Positions 27,505-34,453 of a stretch of DNA of 64,000 nt are shown here, in pieces; positions within the stretch are counted from its first letter, which is position 1, and every line of letters starts with the position of its first letter. The stretch is from Candidatus Hydrogenedentota bacterium (GTDB lineage Bacteria > Hydrogenedentota > Hydrogenedentia > Hydrogenedentales > SLHB01). A program made the position numbers and the translations under genes. The notes under the pieces were generated by a model. It ran no database searches and was not told the DNA's origin. It saw only the letters and a list, made by a program, of their open reading frames with translations. The stretch is from NCBI GenBank assembly GCA_045863295.1, contig BTWA01000007.1, positions 151,709 to 215,708 on the forward strand, in the 5' to 3' direction.

Positions 27505-28317
27505 TCACCTGTCCGGGCTTTCGTGCAATCTCAGGAGCTCCGGTGCCCGATCAGTCTGAAGCCAGTCCACGCCGCATTCGAGCATACGAGTCCACACCGC
27601 CGGTATGTCTGCTTCATCCAATACTTTTGCCTGTACTTTTATCCCTAAAGCATGAAATCGGGCGCAGACATCCGGAGTGACTTCATTGTGATTGATTTCG
27701 ACCGCCGAGGGCTTCCATTTCGCGACCCAATCTTCGATGCCGTAATCCGTATGCCATTTGGGCATAATTGGGATCTGCCCTTTGGAGAGTAACCGTACCT
27801 TTTCGAGTACTTCGACGCTGTCAAATACGACGACTTGGTTCGCCATGTCTGCATCAAGTATCTCATGGACAATTAACTCCGGATCGATTGATTTGCAGTC
27901 CAGATAGAGATTTAGCCGGTTTCGCGCGATGGTCAGACATTCTTTCAGGGTCAGAATACGCTCGCCCTTGAACTGATCAGAAAAATGCGACCCGGCATCA
28001 AGCAACTTAATCTCGGCCAGAGTCAAATCGGAGACCGCCCCCGTGCCGTCAGTCTTGCCGTCTACCGTGCTGTCGTGAAACACGATGTGTTGGCCATCCT
28101 TCGTCAACCGGACATCCACTTCGGCCCATTCAATCCTTAGGTCAACGCAGCGGTCCAGCGCGGGCCGCGTATTCTCCGGCGCGTCCGACATGGCACCGCG
28201 ATGGGCCATGACCTGAAAGCGCCTCGGTGGAGAAATGGGTTCAAAGAACTCGGCTGCTTTGGAAACGCTTGAAATGATAATCAAAAGGGCCAGCGAGGTG
28301 AACAAGTAGATACGCAT
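27505..28317 (-). CDS. Glycerophosphodiester phosphodiesterase family protein
   Basis: AHRGA, PENT, EVDVRLTKDG-IVFHD, LQTD. Confidence 0.9.
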   Translation of the reverse strand: MRIYLFTSLALLIIISSVSKAAEFFEPISPPRRFQVMAHRGAMSDAPENTRPALDRCVDLRIEWAEVDVRLTKDGQHIVFHDSTVDGKTDGTGAVSDLTLAEIKLLDAGSHFSDQFKGERILTLKECLTIARNRLNLYLDCKSIDPELIVHEILDADMANQVVVFDSVEVLEKVRLLSKGQIPIMPKWHTDYGIEDWVAKWKPSAVEINHNEVTPDVCARFHALGIKVQAKVLDEADIPAVWTRMLECGVDWLQTDRAPELLRLHESPDR

Positions 28318-28446
28318 GAGAACTCTTCCTTATGGATCCTGCACAAAAGGCATTCTTGCCATTCGCGGGGATTCACTTGTCGCTGACGGTCGAGTGACGC
28401 AATCGTCTATTCTGGAGTTGCACCCTGATTGTGGCAGAATGAAGGC

Positions 28447-29376
28447 ATGTCTGCCAATGCGCTCGACCAGTTTCTCCATCACCTTACGACCGAACGTGGC
28501 TATTCGCCTCATACCGTCCGCGCTTACATGCAGGATATCGAACAATTCTGCGTGTACCTAGAGGAAGGTCCGGCTGGTCTCGACAAACCTGCGGAGGAAC
28601 GGCCGCAACCCTCACTTTCTGTACTGCGCCGGGCGCAGCGGGTCGACGTGCGCGCTTATTTGGCCCATGTTCAAACGCACGGCGGCACGCCCAAAACCGC
28701 AGCGCGAAAACTCGCTTCGTTACGAGCGGCCTACCGATTCTTTATGCGCGTTGGCGAACTCGACATGAACCCCGCACAAAGTGTCAAATCGCCCAAGCTG
28801 CGGCGCGATCTGCCGGATGTACTCAGTATCCCGGAAGTTACCGCGTTACTGGAGGCACCGGACGCAGGCGAACCGCTTGGCGTCCGCGATCGCGCACTGT
28901 TGGAGACCCTCTACTCCAGCGGCATCCGCGCCGCGGAACTCGCCGGGCTCTCGTTGCGCGACGTCGACATAGTCGGCGGCACGATCAAAGTACTGGGCAA
29001 AAGGCGAAAAGAGCGAATAGCCTACCTGGGCCGACCCGCCGGAGAAGCACTCACGGAATACCTGCGAATCCGCGTTCAATTGGGCAATCCACGCCACGAA
29101 CGGCTCTTCGTCAACTTCCGCGGCGGTCCACTGACGACTCGAAGTGTGCAACGGGTTGTCGAGAAATACGTTCTGCAAGTGCTGCCCATGCGAAAGGAAG
29201 TCTCGCCCCACACCCTTCGTCATACCTTTGCTACGCATATGCTTAACGCGGGGGCCGACTTACGTGTTGTCCAGGAACTCCTGGGGCACGAAAGCCTTTC
29301 CAGCACGCAAATCTACACCCATGTCAGCATCGACCGCCTGAAGGAAATCTATCGCGACACCCATCCACATGCGTGA
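28447..29376 (+). CDS. xerC: Tyrosine recombinase XerC
   Basis: ERGYSPHTVRAY, RDRALLETLYSSGIR, GKRRKER, PHTLRHTFATHML, QELLGH, STQIYTHV, terminal HPHA. Confidence 0.88.
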   Translation: MSANALDQFLHHLTTERGYSPHTVRAYMQDIEQFCVYLEEGPAGLDKPAEERPQPSLSVLRRAQRVDVRAYLAHVQTHGGTPKTAARKLASLRAAYRFFMRVGELDMNPAQSVKSPKLRRDLPDVLSIPEVTALLEAPDAGEPLGVRDRALLETLYSSGIRAAELAGLSLRDVDIVGGTIKVLGKRRKERIAYLGRPAGEALTEYLRIRVQLGNPRHERLFVNFRGGPLTTRSVQRVVEKYVLQVLPMRKEVSPHTLRHTFATHMLNAGADLRVVQELLGHESLSSTQIYTHVSIDRLKEIYRDTHPHA

Positions 29377-29406
29377 TGGGACTAGGGTACAGTTGTTAAC
29401 TTACTG

Positions 29407-29436
29407 TTGACACGCCACCTTGACTTGTGCGATACT
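29407..29436 (+). promoter_or_regulatory. sigma70 promoter for the retron operon (TTGACA-N18-GATACT, extended TG)
   Basis: Perfect -35 at 29407-29412; TGcGATACT at 29428-29436. Confidence 0.6.
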
Positions 29437-29455
29437 ACGCAAGTACCCCAAGGTG
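29416..29455. repeat. Nested inverted repeat over the promoter (CACCTTG ACTTGTG ... CGCAAGT accc CAAGGTG), putative operator
   Basis: CACCTTG/CAAGGTG pair perfectly; ACTTGTG/CGCAAGT has one mismatch; both flank the -10 box. Confidence 0.5.
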
Positions 29456-29508
29456 TAGACAATTCACAGGAGGGCAAACTTCAGTTTAGGGTCGACGCGA
29501 TGTAGTAA

Positions 29509-29797
29509 TCTCTGGGTCTGAACGTGGCCATGCTAAATGGTCGCCTCCTCCCACCAGGAGGTAGGTCCCCCGCCCGCGTGTCAGGATGTATGCCTGTTAG
29601 TCTCGTGGTATCTCCGGTGTGCTTGCGTGGCAAGTGACTCTGGTATTGACGTGCCACAGAACTCGTAGCAAGTGTTGACAGGATACGCTGCGTGGACCTC
29701 ATATAGCGCAAACAAATGTTTCGCTATCAGTTCATGAAGGACCGGTGAGTCACATTGTAGTGGCGAGCCGGGCGGCCTGAAGAACAATACCCAGAGA
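29509..29797 (+). ncRNA. Putative retron ncRNA (msr-msd)
   Basis: Terminal inverted repeat TCTCTGGGT (29509-17) / ACCCAGAGA (29789-97); two short 5' hairpins; a long imperfect stem at 29563-29699; two further hairpins. Lies upstream of a retron-type RT. Confidence 0.7.
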
Positions 29798-29813
29798 AGG
29801 GAGGTGAATCCAT

Positions 29814-30278
29814 ATGGATACGCAATCTGAAGTTCGCGTCGCCCCTGGCCAGCAAGCTGCAGTCGATAAGTTGGATGCCATGATCAAGTTGCTACGATCA
29901 TCCGTCCACAAGGTGGAGCAGCGTGATGGCCAAGGCTGCGCAGAGCTGCGACTGGTTTTGGCTGAGGCCGAAGAGATCTTGGCAATACTGAAATCCGATC
30001 GGGCAGCCAATGCGATCGATTGGAAAAAGATTGGTCAAGTGCTCCGGTTTCTTTTGGACCTGTTGAAAGTGGTCTGTTCCTTTTATAACTGTGTATTCCC
30101 CAGATGGAGAGGTAATGGACACTGGGTTGATCATAAAGAAGATACGCGTAAGCGAGTCTCTGACACAGGACGAGCTTGCCACCGAACTGGATGTTACGCG
30201 AGCATATCTTTCCCAAGTGGAAAATGGTCGAAAACACTGCAGCTTAGACTTATTGCGCAAAGTCGCGCAGAGATTTGA
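29814..30278 (+). CDS. Small alpha-helical protein, putative retron effector (3' end uncertain)
   Basis: Strong SD GGGAGGTG; amphipathic helical first ~90 aa. The remainder overlaps the HTH gene. Confidence 0.6.
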   Translation: MDTQSEVRVAPGQQAAVDKLDAMIKLLRSSVHKVEQRDGQGCAELRLVLAEAEEILAILKSDRAANAIDWKKIGQVLRFLLDLLKVVCSFYNCVFPRWRGNGHWVDHKEDTRKRVSDTGRACHRTGCYASISFPSGKWSKTLQLRLIAQSRAEI

Positions 30279-30417
30279 TATTCCCATTGCTCTATTGCTG
30301 GCGTGGGAAGATGATGCAAGTGTCGATGCGGAGTTAAACGGGAGGTTACAACGGTTATTCATGGAGATTCTTTCCGCAAGAATTGCTAAGACCCAGTCTC
30401 CCAGGCCCACTGGCTGA
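30115..30417 (+). CDS. XRE/Cro-C1 helix-turn-helix protein (retron-associated)
   Basis: IKKIRVSESLTQDELATELDVTRAYLSQVENGRK; SD GGAGAGG before ATG at 30115. Confidence 0.9.
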   Translation: MDTGLIIKKIRVSESLTQDELATELDVTRAYLSQVENGRKHCSLDLLRKVAQRFDIPIALLLAWEDDASVDAELNGRLQRLFMEILSARIAKTQSPRPTG

Positions 30418-30428
30418 ATTAGGCCGTC

Positions 30429-31364
30429 ATGAAGGGGGCTAAATCTGACGCACTTGAAATCCGATCCATGGCGCACCTTGCACTTTGCTTAGGCATAAGC
30501 CCGGCAGCGCTGCATGATCTGCTCGCTAATCCTGACAGCTTGTATAGAACATGGTCACAGACGAAGAAAGGTAAGAAACGGGACTATTGTGAGCCGTTGG
30601 AGCCCTTGAAAACTGCACTGAGGAGTCTCAATGCGAGACTTCAAAAAGTAAAGCTCCCGCCATATTTCTATGGTGGAATTCGTGGCCGGTCGAATATTGA
30701 CAATGCTAAGGCGCATGGCCCGAATCGCACACTTCTTAAGGCTGATATAAAGGATTTCTTTCCGAGTATAGATCGCCAAAGGGTACAAGTGATGTTCGAG
30801 AAAAAGTTGCGCTGTTCAGGTGAAGTTGCAAGAGCGATTTCTATTCTCTGTACCCATGAAGACCGGCTTCCCCAAGGGGCGCCAACGAGTACGATGATTG
30901 CGAATTTGGTAGTCGAGCACCTTGCTTTTAGACTGCATCGTCTTGCTCAATTCCATGGGGCCACCTTTACACAATTTGTTGACGATATCTCCATTTCGGG
31001 ACCAAGCCATCTTATTCAACTTGAAGACCTCGTCGCTCGTATAATCGAAGAGGAGGGATTCACTTGCCATCCTCAGAAGCTCTGTACTTTAGGGAAATCC
31101 TCTGAGCAAGTGATCACGGGGGTAAGAGTGGATCATGGTTTAGATGTACCTCTGGAAAAACTATCAGATGTAAGGTCAGAAATAGAAGAGCTAGCACATC
31201 TCAATTCTTCGGACGATGAACTGTACAGAAAGTCGATTCGGTCCATTGTGGGCAGAATCGCATACATTGGAAGTCTGAATAAGGGTTTGGGAAAACAACT
31301 TTCGTGTCGATTAAACGAAGTACTTGGAGACGCTGGTTTATCTGGACAAGTCAATCGAGCTTAG
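30429..31364 (+). CDS. Retron-type reverse transcriptase
   Basis: NAKAH (region X NAxxH), ADIKDFFPSI, LPQGAPTS, FVDDISISG, QVITGVRV (region Y VTG-like). 311 aa with no maturase or endonuclease domain. Confidence 0.92.
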   Translation: MKGAKSDALEIRSMAHLALCLGISPAALHDLLANPDSLYRTWSQTKKGKKRDYCEPLEPLKTALRSLNARLQKVKLPPYFYGGIRGRSNIDNAKAHGPNRTLLKADIKDFFPSIDRQRVQVMFEKKLRCSGEVARAISILCTHEDRLPQGAPTSTMIANLVVEHLAFRLHRLAQFHGATFTQFVDDISISGPSHLIQLEDLVARIIEEEGFTCHPQKLCTLGKSSEQVITGVRVDHGLDVPLEKLSDVRSEIEELAHLNSSDDELYRKSIRSIVGRIAYIGSLNKGLGKQLSCRLNEVLGDAGLSGQVNRA

Positions 31365-31633
31365 CAATTACAAATCAAAATCGAATTGTCATGGCTGCCT
31401 TCTACATTCCATTGGTGTAACGATAGCCGCACTCCACGAGAGCACTTTCGAGATTTAAAGTCCTTTACGGTAGATACAATTGTTCTAGTTGCTTCAACCA
31501 ATGCGGGCAATACTTGCATAGGCGATATATCCACGATCAGTCTACCAGTCGAAAAGTGTACAATCTCGTTCCCAAATAACATACCATAGTGCCCGAAGCA
31601 TTCGGCATTCTGTGCAACCTTGGACTAATGTAG

Positions 31634-32836
31634 ATGCAAGTAGAAATAATAATGATAGGAACCGAGCTTCTTCTCGGCCAGATCGTAGATACCAACGCTT
31701 CTATGATGGGTCGGCATCTTGCTGATAACGGCATTCCTATCTATCTGAAGACTACGGTTGGAGACAACAAAAACCGCATCGTAAAAGTACTGGAATCGGC
31801 GTTAAGCCGCGCCGACGTGGTGCTCACGTCCGGCGGCCTTGGCCCTACGGAAGACGACCTCACACGAGAAGCCGTGGCGGAGGTCTTTGGGGTACCGCTC
31901 GAATACCACGAGCATCTTTACGACGAATTAGTCCGGCGCTTTTCAAAGCTGTCCCGCAACATCACTCCCAACAATAAGAAGCAGGCATATGCGCCGCAGG
32001 GTGCCACAATCTTGCCCAATCCGAACGGAACCGCGCCGGGGTTTCGGTGCGGCGATTCCCGCGGTGAAATCGTCTGTATGCCCGGGGTGCCCTTCGAATT
32101 GGAACCGATGCTGTGCGACCAGGTAATTCCGCACATCTGCAATACTTTTGGCGTAAAAGGGCTGATGCACTCGAGGGTACTGAAAGTGTGCGGCGTCGGC
32201 GAATCCAGAGTGGATGCGGCCATGGGCGACCTCATGGCCACACTGGAGAACCCCACAATTGGGGTTCTGGCCAGCCCGGAATGGGTTCGTATCCGCATCA
32301 CGGCGCGGGCCGAAACAGTCGAGGAGGCGGAAGCCCGGATTGCTCCCGTGGAAGCGGCTGTAAGGGAACGTCTACCCGGGCTCATTATGGGGACCGGAGA
32401 TGATACTTTGGAGGCCGTAGTAGAATCGCTCCTTGTTGAAAAAGGCTGGACCATAGCCACGGCAGAAACCATGACGTCCGGCATGATCGCCCAGCGATTG
32501 ACCGCAGCCGGCTCCAGGCAATTCCTGGGAGGTGAGAACCTTCCCATGGCGGCGTTCAAGGGCCGCGCAACCTCTGAGCAAGCCTTGCAGTGGGCGTGTC
32601 AGACGCGTGACCGCTTTGGCGCGGCCTGTGCGCTCGCCGTACTGGCCAACCCTGAAGATCGGCGTTTGCTTGTCGCATGGGTGTGTCCAGAGGGGCAAAC
32701 CCTTATGGAGGCAGGGTTTGGGCGCATTACGCCAGTATTTCAGCTGCGTGCATGCACCCATGCGCTGGAACATGTTCGTAGGTCCATTCTGGGAGTAGTG
32801 GATCCGTTTGCGGAGCCTACCTCCAAGAACATTTAA
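31634..32836 (+). CDS. cinA: CinA-family competence/damage-inducible protein (MoCF-binding domain + degenerate PncC domain)
   Basis: IGTELLLGQIVDTNA, VGDN, GGLGPTEDDLT, GTAPG, MPGVPFE, GVGES. Confidence 0.9.
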   Translation: MQVEIIMIGTELLLGQIVDTNASMMGRHLADNGIPIYLKTTVGDNKNRIVKVLESALSRADVVLTSGGLGPTEDDLTREAVAEVFGVPLEYHEHLYDELVRRFSKLSRNITPNNKKQAYAPQGATILPNPNGTAPGFRCGDSRGEIVCMPGVPFELEPMLCDQVIPHICNTFGVKGLMHSRVLKVCGVGESRVDAAMGDLMATLENPTIGVLASPEWVRIRITARAETVEEAEARIAPVEAAVRERLPGLIMGTGDDTLEAVVESLLVEKGWTIATAETMTSGMIAQRLTAAGSRQFLGGENLPMAAFKGRATSEQALQWACQTRDRFGAACALAVLANPEDRRLLVAWVCPEGQTLMEAGFGRITPVFQLRACTHALEHVRRSILGVVDPFAEPTSKNI

Positions 32837-32862
32837 CCGGCCTGCGGGTCCCAAGGAAACAT

Positions 32863-32891
32863 TTGACAGGTTTAGGACCGTGTGCTAGACT
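32863..32891 (+). promoter_or_regulatory. sigma70 promoter (TTGACA-N17-TAGACT, extended TG)
   Basis: Near-consensus hexamers about 50 nt upstream of the 32944 start. Confidence 0.65.
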
Positions 32892-32943
32892 GCTTTCGTT
32901 CCCGCAACATCTGTGGTGGTAAGCGGTTAGCCCCAGGGAGGAT

Positions 32944-33327
32944 ATGCCAGTGTTGAAAAAGTGCAAGGCTCTCGTGGCCATCCTGTTGATCGCGGTGGTC
33001 GCATTGGCATCAATGCCGCTGGGCGCCCAGTCCACTTACGATCCCGACGACATGATTACCCCGCCCACGGGCTTCGAGAAATCGCTGACCAAACTCGGTC
33101 GCGGCTTCTCGAACATCCTCCTTGGCTGGGCGGAGATTCCCGTAACCTTCGACAAAAAGCTCAAGGAAGGTAAGCCTCTCGGTTATTTGGTTGGCGTTGT
33201 GCCCGTGTTGGGCACGGCCCGCGCGGTGATGCGCACGGCCACTGGCGTCTTTGAAGTCACCACCTTCGTATGGTCGGATAAAGAAGTCAATTACGACGCC
33301 ATCCTTGAGCCGGAATACATTTTCTAA
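32944..33327 (+). CDS. Exosortase system-associated protein-like (TIGR04073-like) small exported/membrane protein
   Basis: KLGRGFSNILLGWAEIP...GVFEVTTF...ILEPEYIF pattern; signal peptide. Confidence 0.7.
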   Translation: MPVLKKCKALVAILLIAVVALASMPLGAQSTYDPDDMITPPTGFEKSLTKLGRGFSNILLGWAEIPVTFDKKLKEGKPLGYLVGVVPVLGTARAVMRTATGVFEVTTFVWSDKEVNYDAILEPEYIF

Positions 33328-33341
33328 TTGCCTTGGAGACC

Positions 33342-33605
33342 ATGGTCTGGAAACGGCAGGGCGCGGCGGTCACGACTGCTGTGATTTTGAAGAACGGCGC
33401 CAAGGGCCGTGTCGTGCTGGTTGCCGGCAAAGAGAATCCCAAGGGCGCCGTAATGCTCATGTCTGGCGGGGAACAGGGGGCGGTAGTCACGACAACCCTG
33501 ACCAGTCACTATCGAGACTTGACCCAAGAACAACTGGTCGCGATTCTCTGCATGCAAGAAAGGGTGTTCGGCCAATCCGGCCTGACGGCACCTGAACTTC
33601 CGTGA
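33342..33605 (+). CDS. Hypothetical protein
   Basis: SD GGAG; fills the operon gap and overlaps the next start (GTGA). Confidence 0.55.
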   Translation: MVWKRQGAAVTTAVILKNGAKGRVVLVAGKENPKGAVMLMSGGEQGAVVTTTLTSHYRDLTQEQLVAILCMQERVFGQSGLTAPELP

Positions 33606-34453
33606 CCCACCGCTACACCATTGACAGTCTCCTCGAAGAGATCGTAACGCTTCCGAGCTTGCCCGACTCGGTCTTTCGCATTACGGAAATGGTCAACAGC
33701 CCCGATCCCAATATGCACGATATAGGGAAAGCCATTTCCGCTGACCCGGCGCTTGCGCTCAAGACTTTACGACTGGTCAATTCGGCCTATTACGGACTCG
33801 CCAACAAAGTCACCTCCGTCGAGCATGCTGTAACCCTGCTGGGGCTGCGCGTACTCAAGAACCTGGTGTTTACAGCCACGGTATTTGAGACGTTTAAAAC
33901 CAGCACTGCAGACTTGCTGCGCCACAGCGTGGCCTGTGCCGTCGCCATGCGTACCATTGCTGAGGCCCGCATCAACACCATGGAATTTGATCCCGAAGAA
34001 GCATTCATCTTTGGACTGTTGCACGATATCGGCAAGATCATCTTTCAACAATTTCTTCCCGAGGACTTTGAGAGCGCGGTGCATGCCAGTCACGTCCGAG
34101 GAATTCCCCTGTTTATTGCGGAACAGGACGTGATAGGCGTCGACCATGCCGAACTGGGTGCCTGCCTCGCCGAAAAGTGGGGCTTGCCGCCCGCCCTGGT
34201 TCAAGCCGTGGCGTCACACCACGACCTGTCCAATTGTTCCGATGTTGCCTTGAGACCCTTAGCTGCGACTTTGGCCGTGGCGGACTACTTCTGCATTGCG
34301 GCGGGCATACCCGCCGACAAGCGCTCCGTACTGCATTGTGCGGACGGTGCGTTTGGTGCCGCCAAGATTTCCAACGATCAGATCCCCGATTTGTTAAATC
34401 GATTCTTTAGAGCGCACGGATCCATCGACGAATATATACAAGTGGCGGCGTGA
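33602..34453 (+). CDS. HDOD domain protein
   Basis: LPSLP, DPALALKTLRLVNSAYYG, GLLHDIGK, GVDHAELG...WGLP. Confidence 0.9.
   Translation: MTHRYTIDSLLEEIVTLPSLPDSVFRITEMVNSPDPNMHDIGKAISADPALALKTLRLVNSAYYGLANKVTSVEHAVTLLGLRVLKNLVFTATVFETFKTSTADLLRHSVACAVAMRTIAEARINTMEFDPEEAFIFGLLHDIGKIIFQQFLPEDFESAVHASHVRGIPLFIAEQDVIGVDHAELGACLAEKWGLPPALVQAVASHHDLSNCSDVALRPLAATLAVADYFCIAAGIPADKRSVLHCADGAFGAAKISNDQIPDLLNRFFRAHGSIDEYIQVAA

Follow-up and report, generated by a model that had tools for sequence, protein, structure and literature searches.

The 64-kb stretch of contig BTWA01000007.1 analysed here (the window) contains three co-oriented genes downstream of a promoter and a structured leader of ca. 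370 nucleotides (nt). The genes encode a small helical protein (SP), a protein with a helix-turn-helix (HTH) domain and a reverse transcriptase (RT). The module that they form with the promoter and leader, 29407–31364, is very probably, to judge from its sequence, an intact Type VI retron with the SP-HTH-RT layout and a structured RNA. It is a new copy of a system that has already been described, not a new kind of system. The features of the locus are listed in Table 1.

The initial annotation of this DNA described the genes as tightly packed and co-oriented. The orientation is as described, while the packing was understated – the SP frame overlaps the HTH gene by 164 nt in a different reading frame. 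The HTH gene ends 11 nt before the start of the RT gene.

Table 1. Features of the retron module and the spacer that follows it, in window coordinates
Feature	Position	Strand	Basis
Promoter, sigma-70-type (TTGACA, 18 nt, TG-n-GATACT)	29407–29436	+	10 of 12 matches, TG extension
Outer long-range helix H1, 5' arm	29487–29500	+	pairs with 29834–29847 in minimum free energy (MFE) fold
Closing stem H2, 5' arm, TCTCTGGGT	29509–29517	+	perfect inverted repeat with 29789–29797
Hairpins SLa (GGCCAU/AUGGUC) and SLb (GCCUCCU/AGGAGGU)	29526–29562	+	MFE fold
Long stem-loop, 137 nt, poorly conserved	29563–29699	+	MFE fold; msd candidate
Two further stem-loops with conserved TCAGTT and GGCGGCCTGAAGAAC block	29703–29785	+	MFE fold; DNA alignment
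H2, 3' arm, ACCCAGAGA, directly before SP ribosome-binding site (RBS)	29789–29797	+	perfect inverted repeat
SP RBS, GGGAGGTGA	29799–29807	+	sequence; AGGAGG conserved among aligned relatives
SP, small helical protein, candidate toxin, open reading frame (ORF) of 154 amino acids (aa)	29814–30278	+	ORF, homologues, predicted fold
H1, 3' arm, inside SP codons 7–12	29834–29847	+	same place (SP +12 to +33) in all six loci
XRE/Cro-type HTH protein, 100 aa	30115–30417	+	PF01381, HTH_VI, 12 homologues aligned
Retron RT, 311 aa, Type VI	30429–31364	+	PF00078, RT_VI, motifs
AT-rich spacer, RT stop codon to cinA	31365–31633	.	GC 0.428

Proteins encoded by the module

Among the PADLOC profiles, the RT scores best on RT_VI (8.1e-71, 236.5 bits, profile positions 4–274 of 279). 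The next-best profile, RT_II-A, reaches 174.1 bits, 62 bits lower. In NCBIfam there were sub-threshold matches to retron families, with the St85 family at 142.6 bits. Models of RTs that are not from retrons scored only 22–29 bits – 23.8 for the group II intron RT and, among defense-associated RTs, 29.1 for Drt3a and 22.1 for Drt2 – and by profiles the protein does not group with them. Retron RTs carry the signatures NAxxH and VTG and a catalytic xxDD motif. NAKAH, LPQGAPTS, FVDD and VITG, the motifs initially reported, are all in the translation, and none of N92, A93, H96, D185, D186 and G231 varies among 18 aligned sequences. By its profile scores, the protein is a Type VI retron RT.

The HTH ORF (30091–30417) opens with a GTG at 30091, and its likely start is the ATG at 30115, which follows the sequence GGAGAGG. 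The protein matches PF01381 (HTH_3) at 3.8e-13, and its best HTH profile in PADLOC is HTH_VI, at 2.7e-19. The proposal that this is a complete Type VI module thus agrees with the profiles of both proteins, whose Type VI identity is a computed result. The same is seen in the relatives: RT_VI is the top profile for all 10 related RTs tested, and HTH_VI for all 6 of their HTH proteins.

SP has a strong Shine-Dalgarno (SD) sequence and an ATG start, and homologous small frames are found in the DNA upstream of related RTs. In BLASTP it matched the proteins of two related loci, L003 (2e-22 over 107 residues) and L005 (4e-19), with 34–39% identity along ca. 105 residues. Seven SPs align with one another, and share the motif G-x-x-G-C-A-E-L, an invariant tryptophan (W70), and a hydrophobic stretch that ends in C-S-x-x-N-C. 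Past this last motif the tails vary in length, and they are alike only where they are an alternative reading of the conserved N-terminus of the HTH protein. Across the six loci with an HTH gene, the overlap between the SP and HTH frames ranges from ca. 32 to 164 nt.

A profile was built from the seven sequences and searched against 1.84 billion cluster representatives. It matched 111 of them at E ≤ 0.001, 57 at E ≤ 1e-10 and 4 at E ≤ 1e-30, nearly all of them 73–209 aa long. Two long matches, proteins of 1042 aa and 649 aa hit in multiple stretches, look like repeats rather than relatives. None of ten top clusters inspected has a functional name – four are labelled 'hypothetical protein' and six are nameless – and one is labelled candidate division Zixibacteria. 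When a hidden Markov model (HMM) of the family was run on the ORFs of 210 loci, only its own seven training sequences matched, so that within the sample the family occurs only with this RT subclade. There was no family match for SP in Pfam, PADLOC or NCBIfam. A word-indexed search of proteins of near length gave no relative, a limit of sensitivity, because the full profile search found 111.

AlphaFold2, given the seven-row alignment, predicts three helices in SP (residues 11–38, 43–61 and 70–90). Mean confidence (predicted local distance difference test, pLDDT) of 10-residue blocks is 64–89 over residues 11–90, the overall mean is 59.2, and the tail (93–153) lies below 50. The folded core is thus ca. 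residues 11–90, and the tail is the stretch that overlaps the HTH gene. Conservation of SP is a computed observation, and from the sequences it is a real, conserved gene. It is a candidate toxin by analogy with the two Type VI retrons studied so far, Retron-Vpa2 of Vibrio parahaemolyticus (Zhang et al. 2025, bioRxiv 10.1101/2025.10.22.683967) and Retron-Sen3 of Salmonella enterica (Garcia-Rodriguez et al. 2026, bioRxiv 10.64898/2026.04.27.721009).

The protein similarity to the L003 and L005 products along ca. 105 residues, the 111 cluster representatives of similar length and the strong SD sequence at the right spacing all speak for translation of the frame, as do the confident three-helix prediction and a predicted interface with the HTH protein that scores well above its controls. 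In addition, the homologous position is described as that of a proven toxin in both Retron-Vpa2 and Retron-Sen3. It is highly improbable, then, that the 154-codon frame is untranslated, with 29814–30114 being the 3' part of the non-coding RNA (ncRNA) and the HTH protein the sole accessory protein, even though that would agree with the blank word-indexed and family searches. It is true that the last 60 codons lie over the HTH gene in another frame and that disorder is predicted for them, and constraint on the RNA at the start of the frame, where an arm of H1 lies, could alone explain some of the conservation there.

Translated as SP, the frame yields a protein with a predicted partner in the module. 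The HTH protein is, by analogy, a candidate for two roles – the partner that neutralises SP, and a repressor of reverse transcription. The SP-HTH complex was predicted from a 12-row alignment of HTH and a seven-row alignment of SP residues 1–110, with three controls. It scored 0.75, compared to 0.02 for the best control; the 0.75 mark is reached by 116 of 157 solved complexes and by 2 of 215 mismatched pairs, a yardstick that holds roughly here, since custom alignments were used. At least 90% of contacts agree between runs, and the pLDDT of the partners is at least 70. On the HTH side, the computed interface comprises residues 55–93, after the DNA-binding domain, with the conserved C-terminal helix contributing most; on the SP side it comprises residues 42–91, in helices 2 and 3. 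The model supports binding of SP by HTH and does not demonstrate it, and the predicted interface fits the finding in Retron-Sen3 that HTH neutralises SP.

The predicted complex needs no RT, and the HTH-SP module of Retron-Sen3 is described as independent of the RT and the ncRNA (10.64898/2026.04.27.721009). Both points would suit a free-standing toxin-antitoxin pair to which the RT and the RNA are adjacent by chance, but this is extremely improbable – the SP-HTH-RT order is found in 10 of 17 related loci, in unrelated phyla; the HTH protein scores best on a retron-specific profile; the SP profile matches only ORFs beside this RT subclade among the 210 loci; and the template region and the start of SP are physically joined by RNA helices.

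Structured leader RNA

The leader had been annotated as a structured region of ca. 290 nt closed by an inverted repeat, and this repeat is stem H2, which is 9 nt long, perfect, and spans 289 nt. The fold of 29440–29815 has a z-score of −2.34, with 1 of 100 shuffles as stable, and the longer fold of 29440–30130 has a z-score of −3.40, with 0 of 20 shuffles as stable. No Rfam family was found on 28000–33000 at E ≤ 1.

Six loci (the window, L003, L005, L011, L004 and L006) were folded separately. An order of elements is common to the six folds: H1, H2, SLa, SLb, a long variable arm, and one or two hairpins with TCAGTT. On the 3' side these are followed by the 3' arm of H2, the RBS, the AUG, and the 3' arm of H1 at SP +12 to +33. 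This architecture is a computed result. The 5' arms of H2 in the six loci are TCTCTGGGT, TCTCTTAAGT, CTCCTATTT, CTCTTTCTGC, CCTGGG and AGTTTTTGA, each time with the complement on the 3' side. Hairpins of other sequence stand at the place of SLa in five of the six folds, and likewise at that of SLb; SLa of L003 and SLb of L005 were read from the alignment by eye only.

The long stem-loop at 29563–29699 is the best candidate for the stretch that would be copied into DNA (msd), because of the analogy to SL3 of Retron-Sen3 and to the msd stem of Retron-Vpa2. It corresponds to the Sen3 element in position and variability. The equivalent arm in the five relatives is ca. 60–180 nt long, and its sequence is not conserved. 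A G located 2–3 nt after the 5' arm of H2 is conserved in the alignment, as judged by eye, and it is a guess that this is the branching G.

H1 pairs the leader with the first codons of SP. RNAalifold, run on a plain MAFFT alignment of five loci, recovers it, with both-sided changes in 7 of 11 pairs. A second test ranked duplex energies – a segment of 17 nt was slid along each locus and paired with the 60 nt before SLa, which keeps the composition. The background segments overlap one another, and the results are ranks, not probabilities. In five loci the segments at SP +12 to +24 beat all of the 377–443 background segments, and in L006, 2 of 412 background segments were as stable. The pairing was always with the same part of the leader. 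For the window copy, 0 of 443 background segments were as stable as the H1 duplex and 10 of 443 were as stable as the H2 duplex; across loci H2 ranks less sharply, with 2 to 55 background segments as stable. When a leader of 250 nt was used, SP +9 to +29 held the most stable segment in 7 of 12 Type VI loci, four of which (L009, L019, L023 and L013) are more distant.

Other pairings were seen in this part of the RNA. A second site in SP, at 29922–29938 (SP +108), at the codons for G-x-x-G-C-A-E-L, pairs with the same leader segment as H1. Equivalents are found at SP +112 in L003, SP +100 in L006 and SP +131 in L011, for a total of four of the six loci, with duplexes of −16 to −23 kcal/mol. An alternative conformer is possible. 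In the window, two neighbouring leader segments can each pair with parts of SP codons 4–11 that overlap one another (29474–29487/29824–29837 and 29488–29500/29834–29846). These pairings are mutually exclusive, and only the second of them matches the conserved H1. One arm of SLb of the window (29543–29562), GCCUCCU, resembles an anti-SD sequence, and the other, AGGAGGU, repeats the SD sequence of SP; this likeness may be due to chance, and the SLb hairpins of the relatives are without it.

Comparison with published Type VI retrons and proposed working

Type VI is the least understood type of retron. Its two studied members are both from Gammaproteobacteria and apparently differ in mode of action. 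Mestre et al. 2020 (PMC7736814) defined the type by a Cro/C1-type HTH protein (HTH cluster 2_1, 91–110 aa) encoded directly upstream of the RT gene or overlapping it. That paper also describes small auxiliary proteins of 75–79 aa with a predicted three-helix fold, in three named clusters, and in its account of Type VI the ncRNA was not found. The window copy is like these systems in that its RT is best on RT_VI, an HTH protein of 100 aa is encoded upstream of it, and a small three-helix protein with no known domain comes before the HTH. It is unlike them in that the auxiliary protein is longer than 75–79 aa and a conserved ncRNA is evident.

In Retron-Vpa2 (Zhang et al. 2025) the small protein is a toxin whose gene shares a 'hybrid RNA' with the msr-msd, where stem-loops hide both its RBS and its start codon. 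Reverse transcription is held back by the HTH, which joins the RT and the RNA in a complex. On infection, multicopy single-stranded DNA (msDNA) accumulates and derepresses translation of SP. The absence of basal single-stranded DNA (ssDNA) is the normal state of this retron. A direct repeat of 7 nt was proposed as the link between msDNA and riboregulator. The comparison with Retron-Vpa2 was made by its published description. Both loci have the order structured RNA, SP, HTH, RT, with the template and the toxin gene on one transcript; in both, SP is small and helical with a hydrophobic C-terminal helix, and a long upstream stem-loop is the likely template. The differences are several. SP of the window has a 154-aa ORF with a core of ca. 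90 aa and extends 164 nt into the HTH gene, whereas the Vpa2 SP has 55 aa. The long-range helix ends in SP codons 7–12 here, whereas the Vpa2 RNA closes after the SP coding sequence. A conserved direct repeat of 7 nt was not found in the window copy and its relatives, the catalytic motif is FVDD in place of YADD, and the host is not a proteobacterium.

In Retron-Sen3 (Garcia-Rodriguez et al. 2026) ssDNA and SP are described as made constitutively, with the HTH as an antitoxin that neutralises SP and the loss of RecBCD activity as the trigger. The same preprint distinguishes SP clusters (cl2075, cl2760, cl3272 and cl3897) and five RT sublineages, and the lineages that it describes are mainly proteobacterial, Bacteroidetes or Pseudomonas. 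The window copy probably belongs to the heterogeneous 'Large' lineage. It shares with Sen3 and cl2075 the SP-HTH-RT order, an ncRNA within ca. [quoted passage not shown] Unlike Sen3, where an intergenic region separates SP and HTH, the two genes overlap in the window. Sen3 has a second inverted repeat after the SP stop codon, whereas the outer helix here ends in the first SP codons. The cl2075 lineage is mainly from Beta- and Gammaproteobacteria, whereas the relatives of the window RT are labelled Hydrogenedentes, Nitrospirales, Acidobacteriota, Zixibacteria, Verrucomicrobiota and Planctomycetota.

These descriptions bear on two of the initial claims. SP had been called an orphan effector, which does not hold – small three-helix proteins are part of the type as described in PMC7736814, they are toxins in Vpa2 and Sen3 as published, and at least 111 of the cluster representatives are related to SP. 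The module had also been called probably uncharacterised. That is true of this copy, but not of the architecture, for which two mechanisms are given in the preprints of 2025–2026.

With these models in hand, the module is very likely an anti-phage system that would halt an infected cell's growth. DNA synthesis by the RT, toxicity of SP, the trigger and phage defence are all carried over from the two preprints and would apply here by analogy. The single promoter at 29407–29436 would drive a long structured 'hybrid' RNA that contains the template, likely 29563–29699, and then the SP coding sequence. At rest, SP's RBS and its start codon would lie in an internal loop clamped by the nested helices H2 and H1, and initiation of SP should therefore be poor. 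Any SP made at rest would be bound by HTH through the helix after its DNA-binding domain, and RT and HTH would sit on the hybrid RNA. On infection, recombination or anti-RecBCD functions of the phage would either let ssDNA made by the RT accumulate or remove HTH. SP would then be released and arrest growth.

A number of results weigh against this interpretation. The SP ORF of 154 aa, with its core of ca. 90 aa, is larger than the SPs in the published accounts (55–79 aa). Four related loci (L004:2536–3882, L013:2711–3870, L014:70–1180 and L018:2559–3744) have a small ORF directly before the RT gene and no HTH gene, and HTH is therefore dispensable in the wider clade. In two loci H2 has only a moderate rank, with 55 of 427 and 54 of 412 background segments as stable. 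The longest contiguous helix in H1 of the window is 8 base pairs (bp), which is equalled by 416 of 1000 shuffles; in this test only L003 (11 of 1000) and L005 (4 of 1000) were significant, and for L004 the zone chosen missed the true arm. Support for H1 comes from the energy-rank test and from positional conservation across loci. Pairing of the leader with the 3' end of SP or with the start of HTH gave background-level energies only, none of it conserved, so that the pairings downstream of SP that are described for Vpa2 and Sen3 are not reproduced here. A direct repeat between the template arm and the start region is likewise absent as a conserved feature – the window has an 8-nt repeat, GGATACGC, at 29681 and 29816, where ca. 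0.2 would be expected by chance, and none of five relatives has it at the same place.

The position of the 3' arm of H1, in toxin codons 7–12, raises a further and rather unlikely possibility, that in this subclade the RNA is a direct switch between RT and ribosome, and thus a third variant of Type VI regulation, in addition to those of Vpa2 and Sen3. If this were true, the helix around the template could not coexist with the first ribosome on the toxin message, and once H1 and H2 opened, the RBS and AUG would immediately be exposed. Ribosomes that pass through the 164-nt overlap would open the HTH start, coupling antitoxin synthesis to that of the toxin. The variant might then be general, as pairing of the leader with the first SP codons was found in 7 of the 12 Type VI loci.

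Knowledge of retrons is not changed in kind by this copy. It adds a host phylum in which no retron has been studied, an SP of greater length whose gene overlaps that of the HTH, and a well-supported RNA clamp whose outer arm lies in the first toxin codons. Experimental genetics is almost lacking in the phyla of the window copy and its five folded relatives (Hydrogenedentota, Acidobacteriota, Zixibacteria and others), and the RNA common to the six loci is an independent, conserved architecture for the idea of a translational clamp. There is also a larger SP family, of more than 100 unnamed clusters, that existing annotation has missed. A gene between the retron RNA and the HTH gene is easily missed because it overlaps the latter.

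Distribution and genomic setting

The host is probably a member of Hydrogenedentota, in agreement with the initial suggestion that it was not a proteobacterium. In a search of 5.8 billion proteins, the nearest full-length RTs were 46–53% identical, with shorter partial matches of up to 57%. A scan of genome contigs with the single RT sequence gave no match, and an alignment-based scan gave seven loci. The related loci are labelled Nitrospirales, Hydrogenedentes, Acidobacteriota, Verrucomicrobiota, Sedimentisphaerales and Planctomycetaceae, and labels among the relatives of RT and SP also include Zixibacteria and Planctomycetota. Homologous RTs keep the upstream arrangement of RNA, small ORF and HTH: of 17 related loci, ten have small ORF, HTH and RT, one is cut within the small ORF, four lack the HTH gene, and two have neither. 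L004 is from the same order as the genome of the window, yet has no HTH gene.

Within the phylum, 3 of 135 species genomes had a strong match to the RT subclade (361–446 bits). These are the genome of the window, G000, and two genomes of the same order, G031 and G035, the source of L003 and L004. Another 17 genomes of the phylum had RT matches of 144–199 bits, which are presumably other types of retron. Among viral contigs, the best RT match was 33% identical and none was of this subclade, with no sign of a phage-borne retron.

GC content is 0.482 in 29377–31633, compared to 0.543 in the window, and when 618 sliding stretches of equal length are ranked, this one falls within the lowest 4. Seven stretches have a GC content at or within 0.005 of its value, and all of them overlap it. 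The drop is mainly in the HTH gene, the RT gene and the spacer, while the ncRNA region has a GC content of 0.526. Together with the patchy distribution, the low GC makes horizontal acquisition likely. The module had been described as a low-GC insert. The low GC stands, and insertion is suggested by base composition and distribution only; no empty site was found in the relatives. Local gene order is not conserved between these genera, and because the order around xerC and cinA differs in the sister genera, no empty site can be demonstrated.

The module lies between a gene for an xerC-type tyrosine recombinase (28429–29376) and cinA (31634–32836). The recombinase scores 321.9 bits on XerC, above the cut-off for the tyrosine-recombinase subfamily, and is a single-copy orthologue with 74–76% identity in the closest sister genera; it is a housekeeping gene. 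No integrase, tRNA or flanking repeat of its own was identified for the module. Orthologues of cinA are present in 46 and of xerC in 49 of 53 family genomes. In the flank upstream of cinA (ca. 1.5 kb where the locus extends to that length), xerC was found in 0 of 19 loci of the relatives. Flanking ORFs of xerC and cinA from the relatives had no match in the window by tblastn at E ≤ 1e-8, in a search whose positive control worked, and two tblastx comparisons were also without a match. The two genes are neighbours only in the genome of the window and are on separate contigs or tens of kb apart in the sister genera; the retron is therefore at a break in gene order.

The promoter had also been annotated, and the sequence contains it as described, TTGACA and GATACT with 18 nt between them and a TG extension. 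Transcription is predicted to start near 29443. A scan for such promoters overall was not above chance (two sites, with 2.8 expected from shuffles), and a −35 box and an extended −10 box are found at the aligned position also in L003, L005 and L011. In the spacer after the RT gene, a simple scan found no terminator-like site.

Contigs from RNA libraries (three runs in two studies) match 29754–30052, 30226–30423, 30307–30558 and 30965–31118 with 0–1 differences, and the first of these runs from the last part of the leader across the RBS and through most of the SP core. There was no cover at 29000–29753, 30053–30225, 30559–30964 and beyond 31118, although such contigs show presence, not absence, ends, strand or level. 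RNA libraries can contain DNA, and the contigs do no more than hint at transcription of the locus. Sludge and bioreactor metagenomes of several studies contain DNA contigs identical to the module.

Rarity of the RT subclade, with its 3 of 135 phylum genomes, would also be expected of a silent or decaying relic, a horizontally acquired retron that looks intact but neither defends the cell nor makes DNA. With the closest RT 57% identical (53% for the best of full length), recent selection in the host cannot be judged, and a census cited in the Toro preprint gives six of six Type VI retrons as without detectable ssDNA in E. coli. Such a relic is nevertheless very unlikely. All three ORFs are open, FVDD and the retron motifs are intact, and the promoter, both RBS and both long-range helices are preserved; the pieces identical to the locus in RNA-library contigs of two studies add weak support. 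As to the census, a lack of basal ssDNA is normal for Retron-Vpa2 as described (10.1101/2025.10.22.683967).

Downstream of cinA are genes for an exosortase-system-associated protein (32944–33327, TIGR04073 family, 2e-14) and an HDIG-domain protein (33602–34453). Neither has the look of a defence gene, and both seem to be ordinary neighbours.

A second retron-type RT, of 286 aa, is encoded in the same genome (contig C53:17077–17802 of G000; locus L002:1456–2316). It scores 265.8 bits on RT_XIII and 240.0 bits on RT_X, compared to 182.3 bits on RT_VI, and therefore belongs to a different system. Upstream of it no HTH gene or small ORF is obvious, and a convergent gene of 454 aa follows it.

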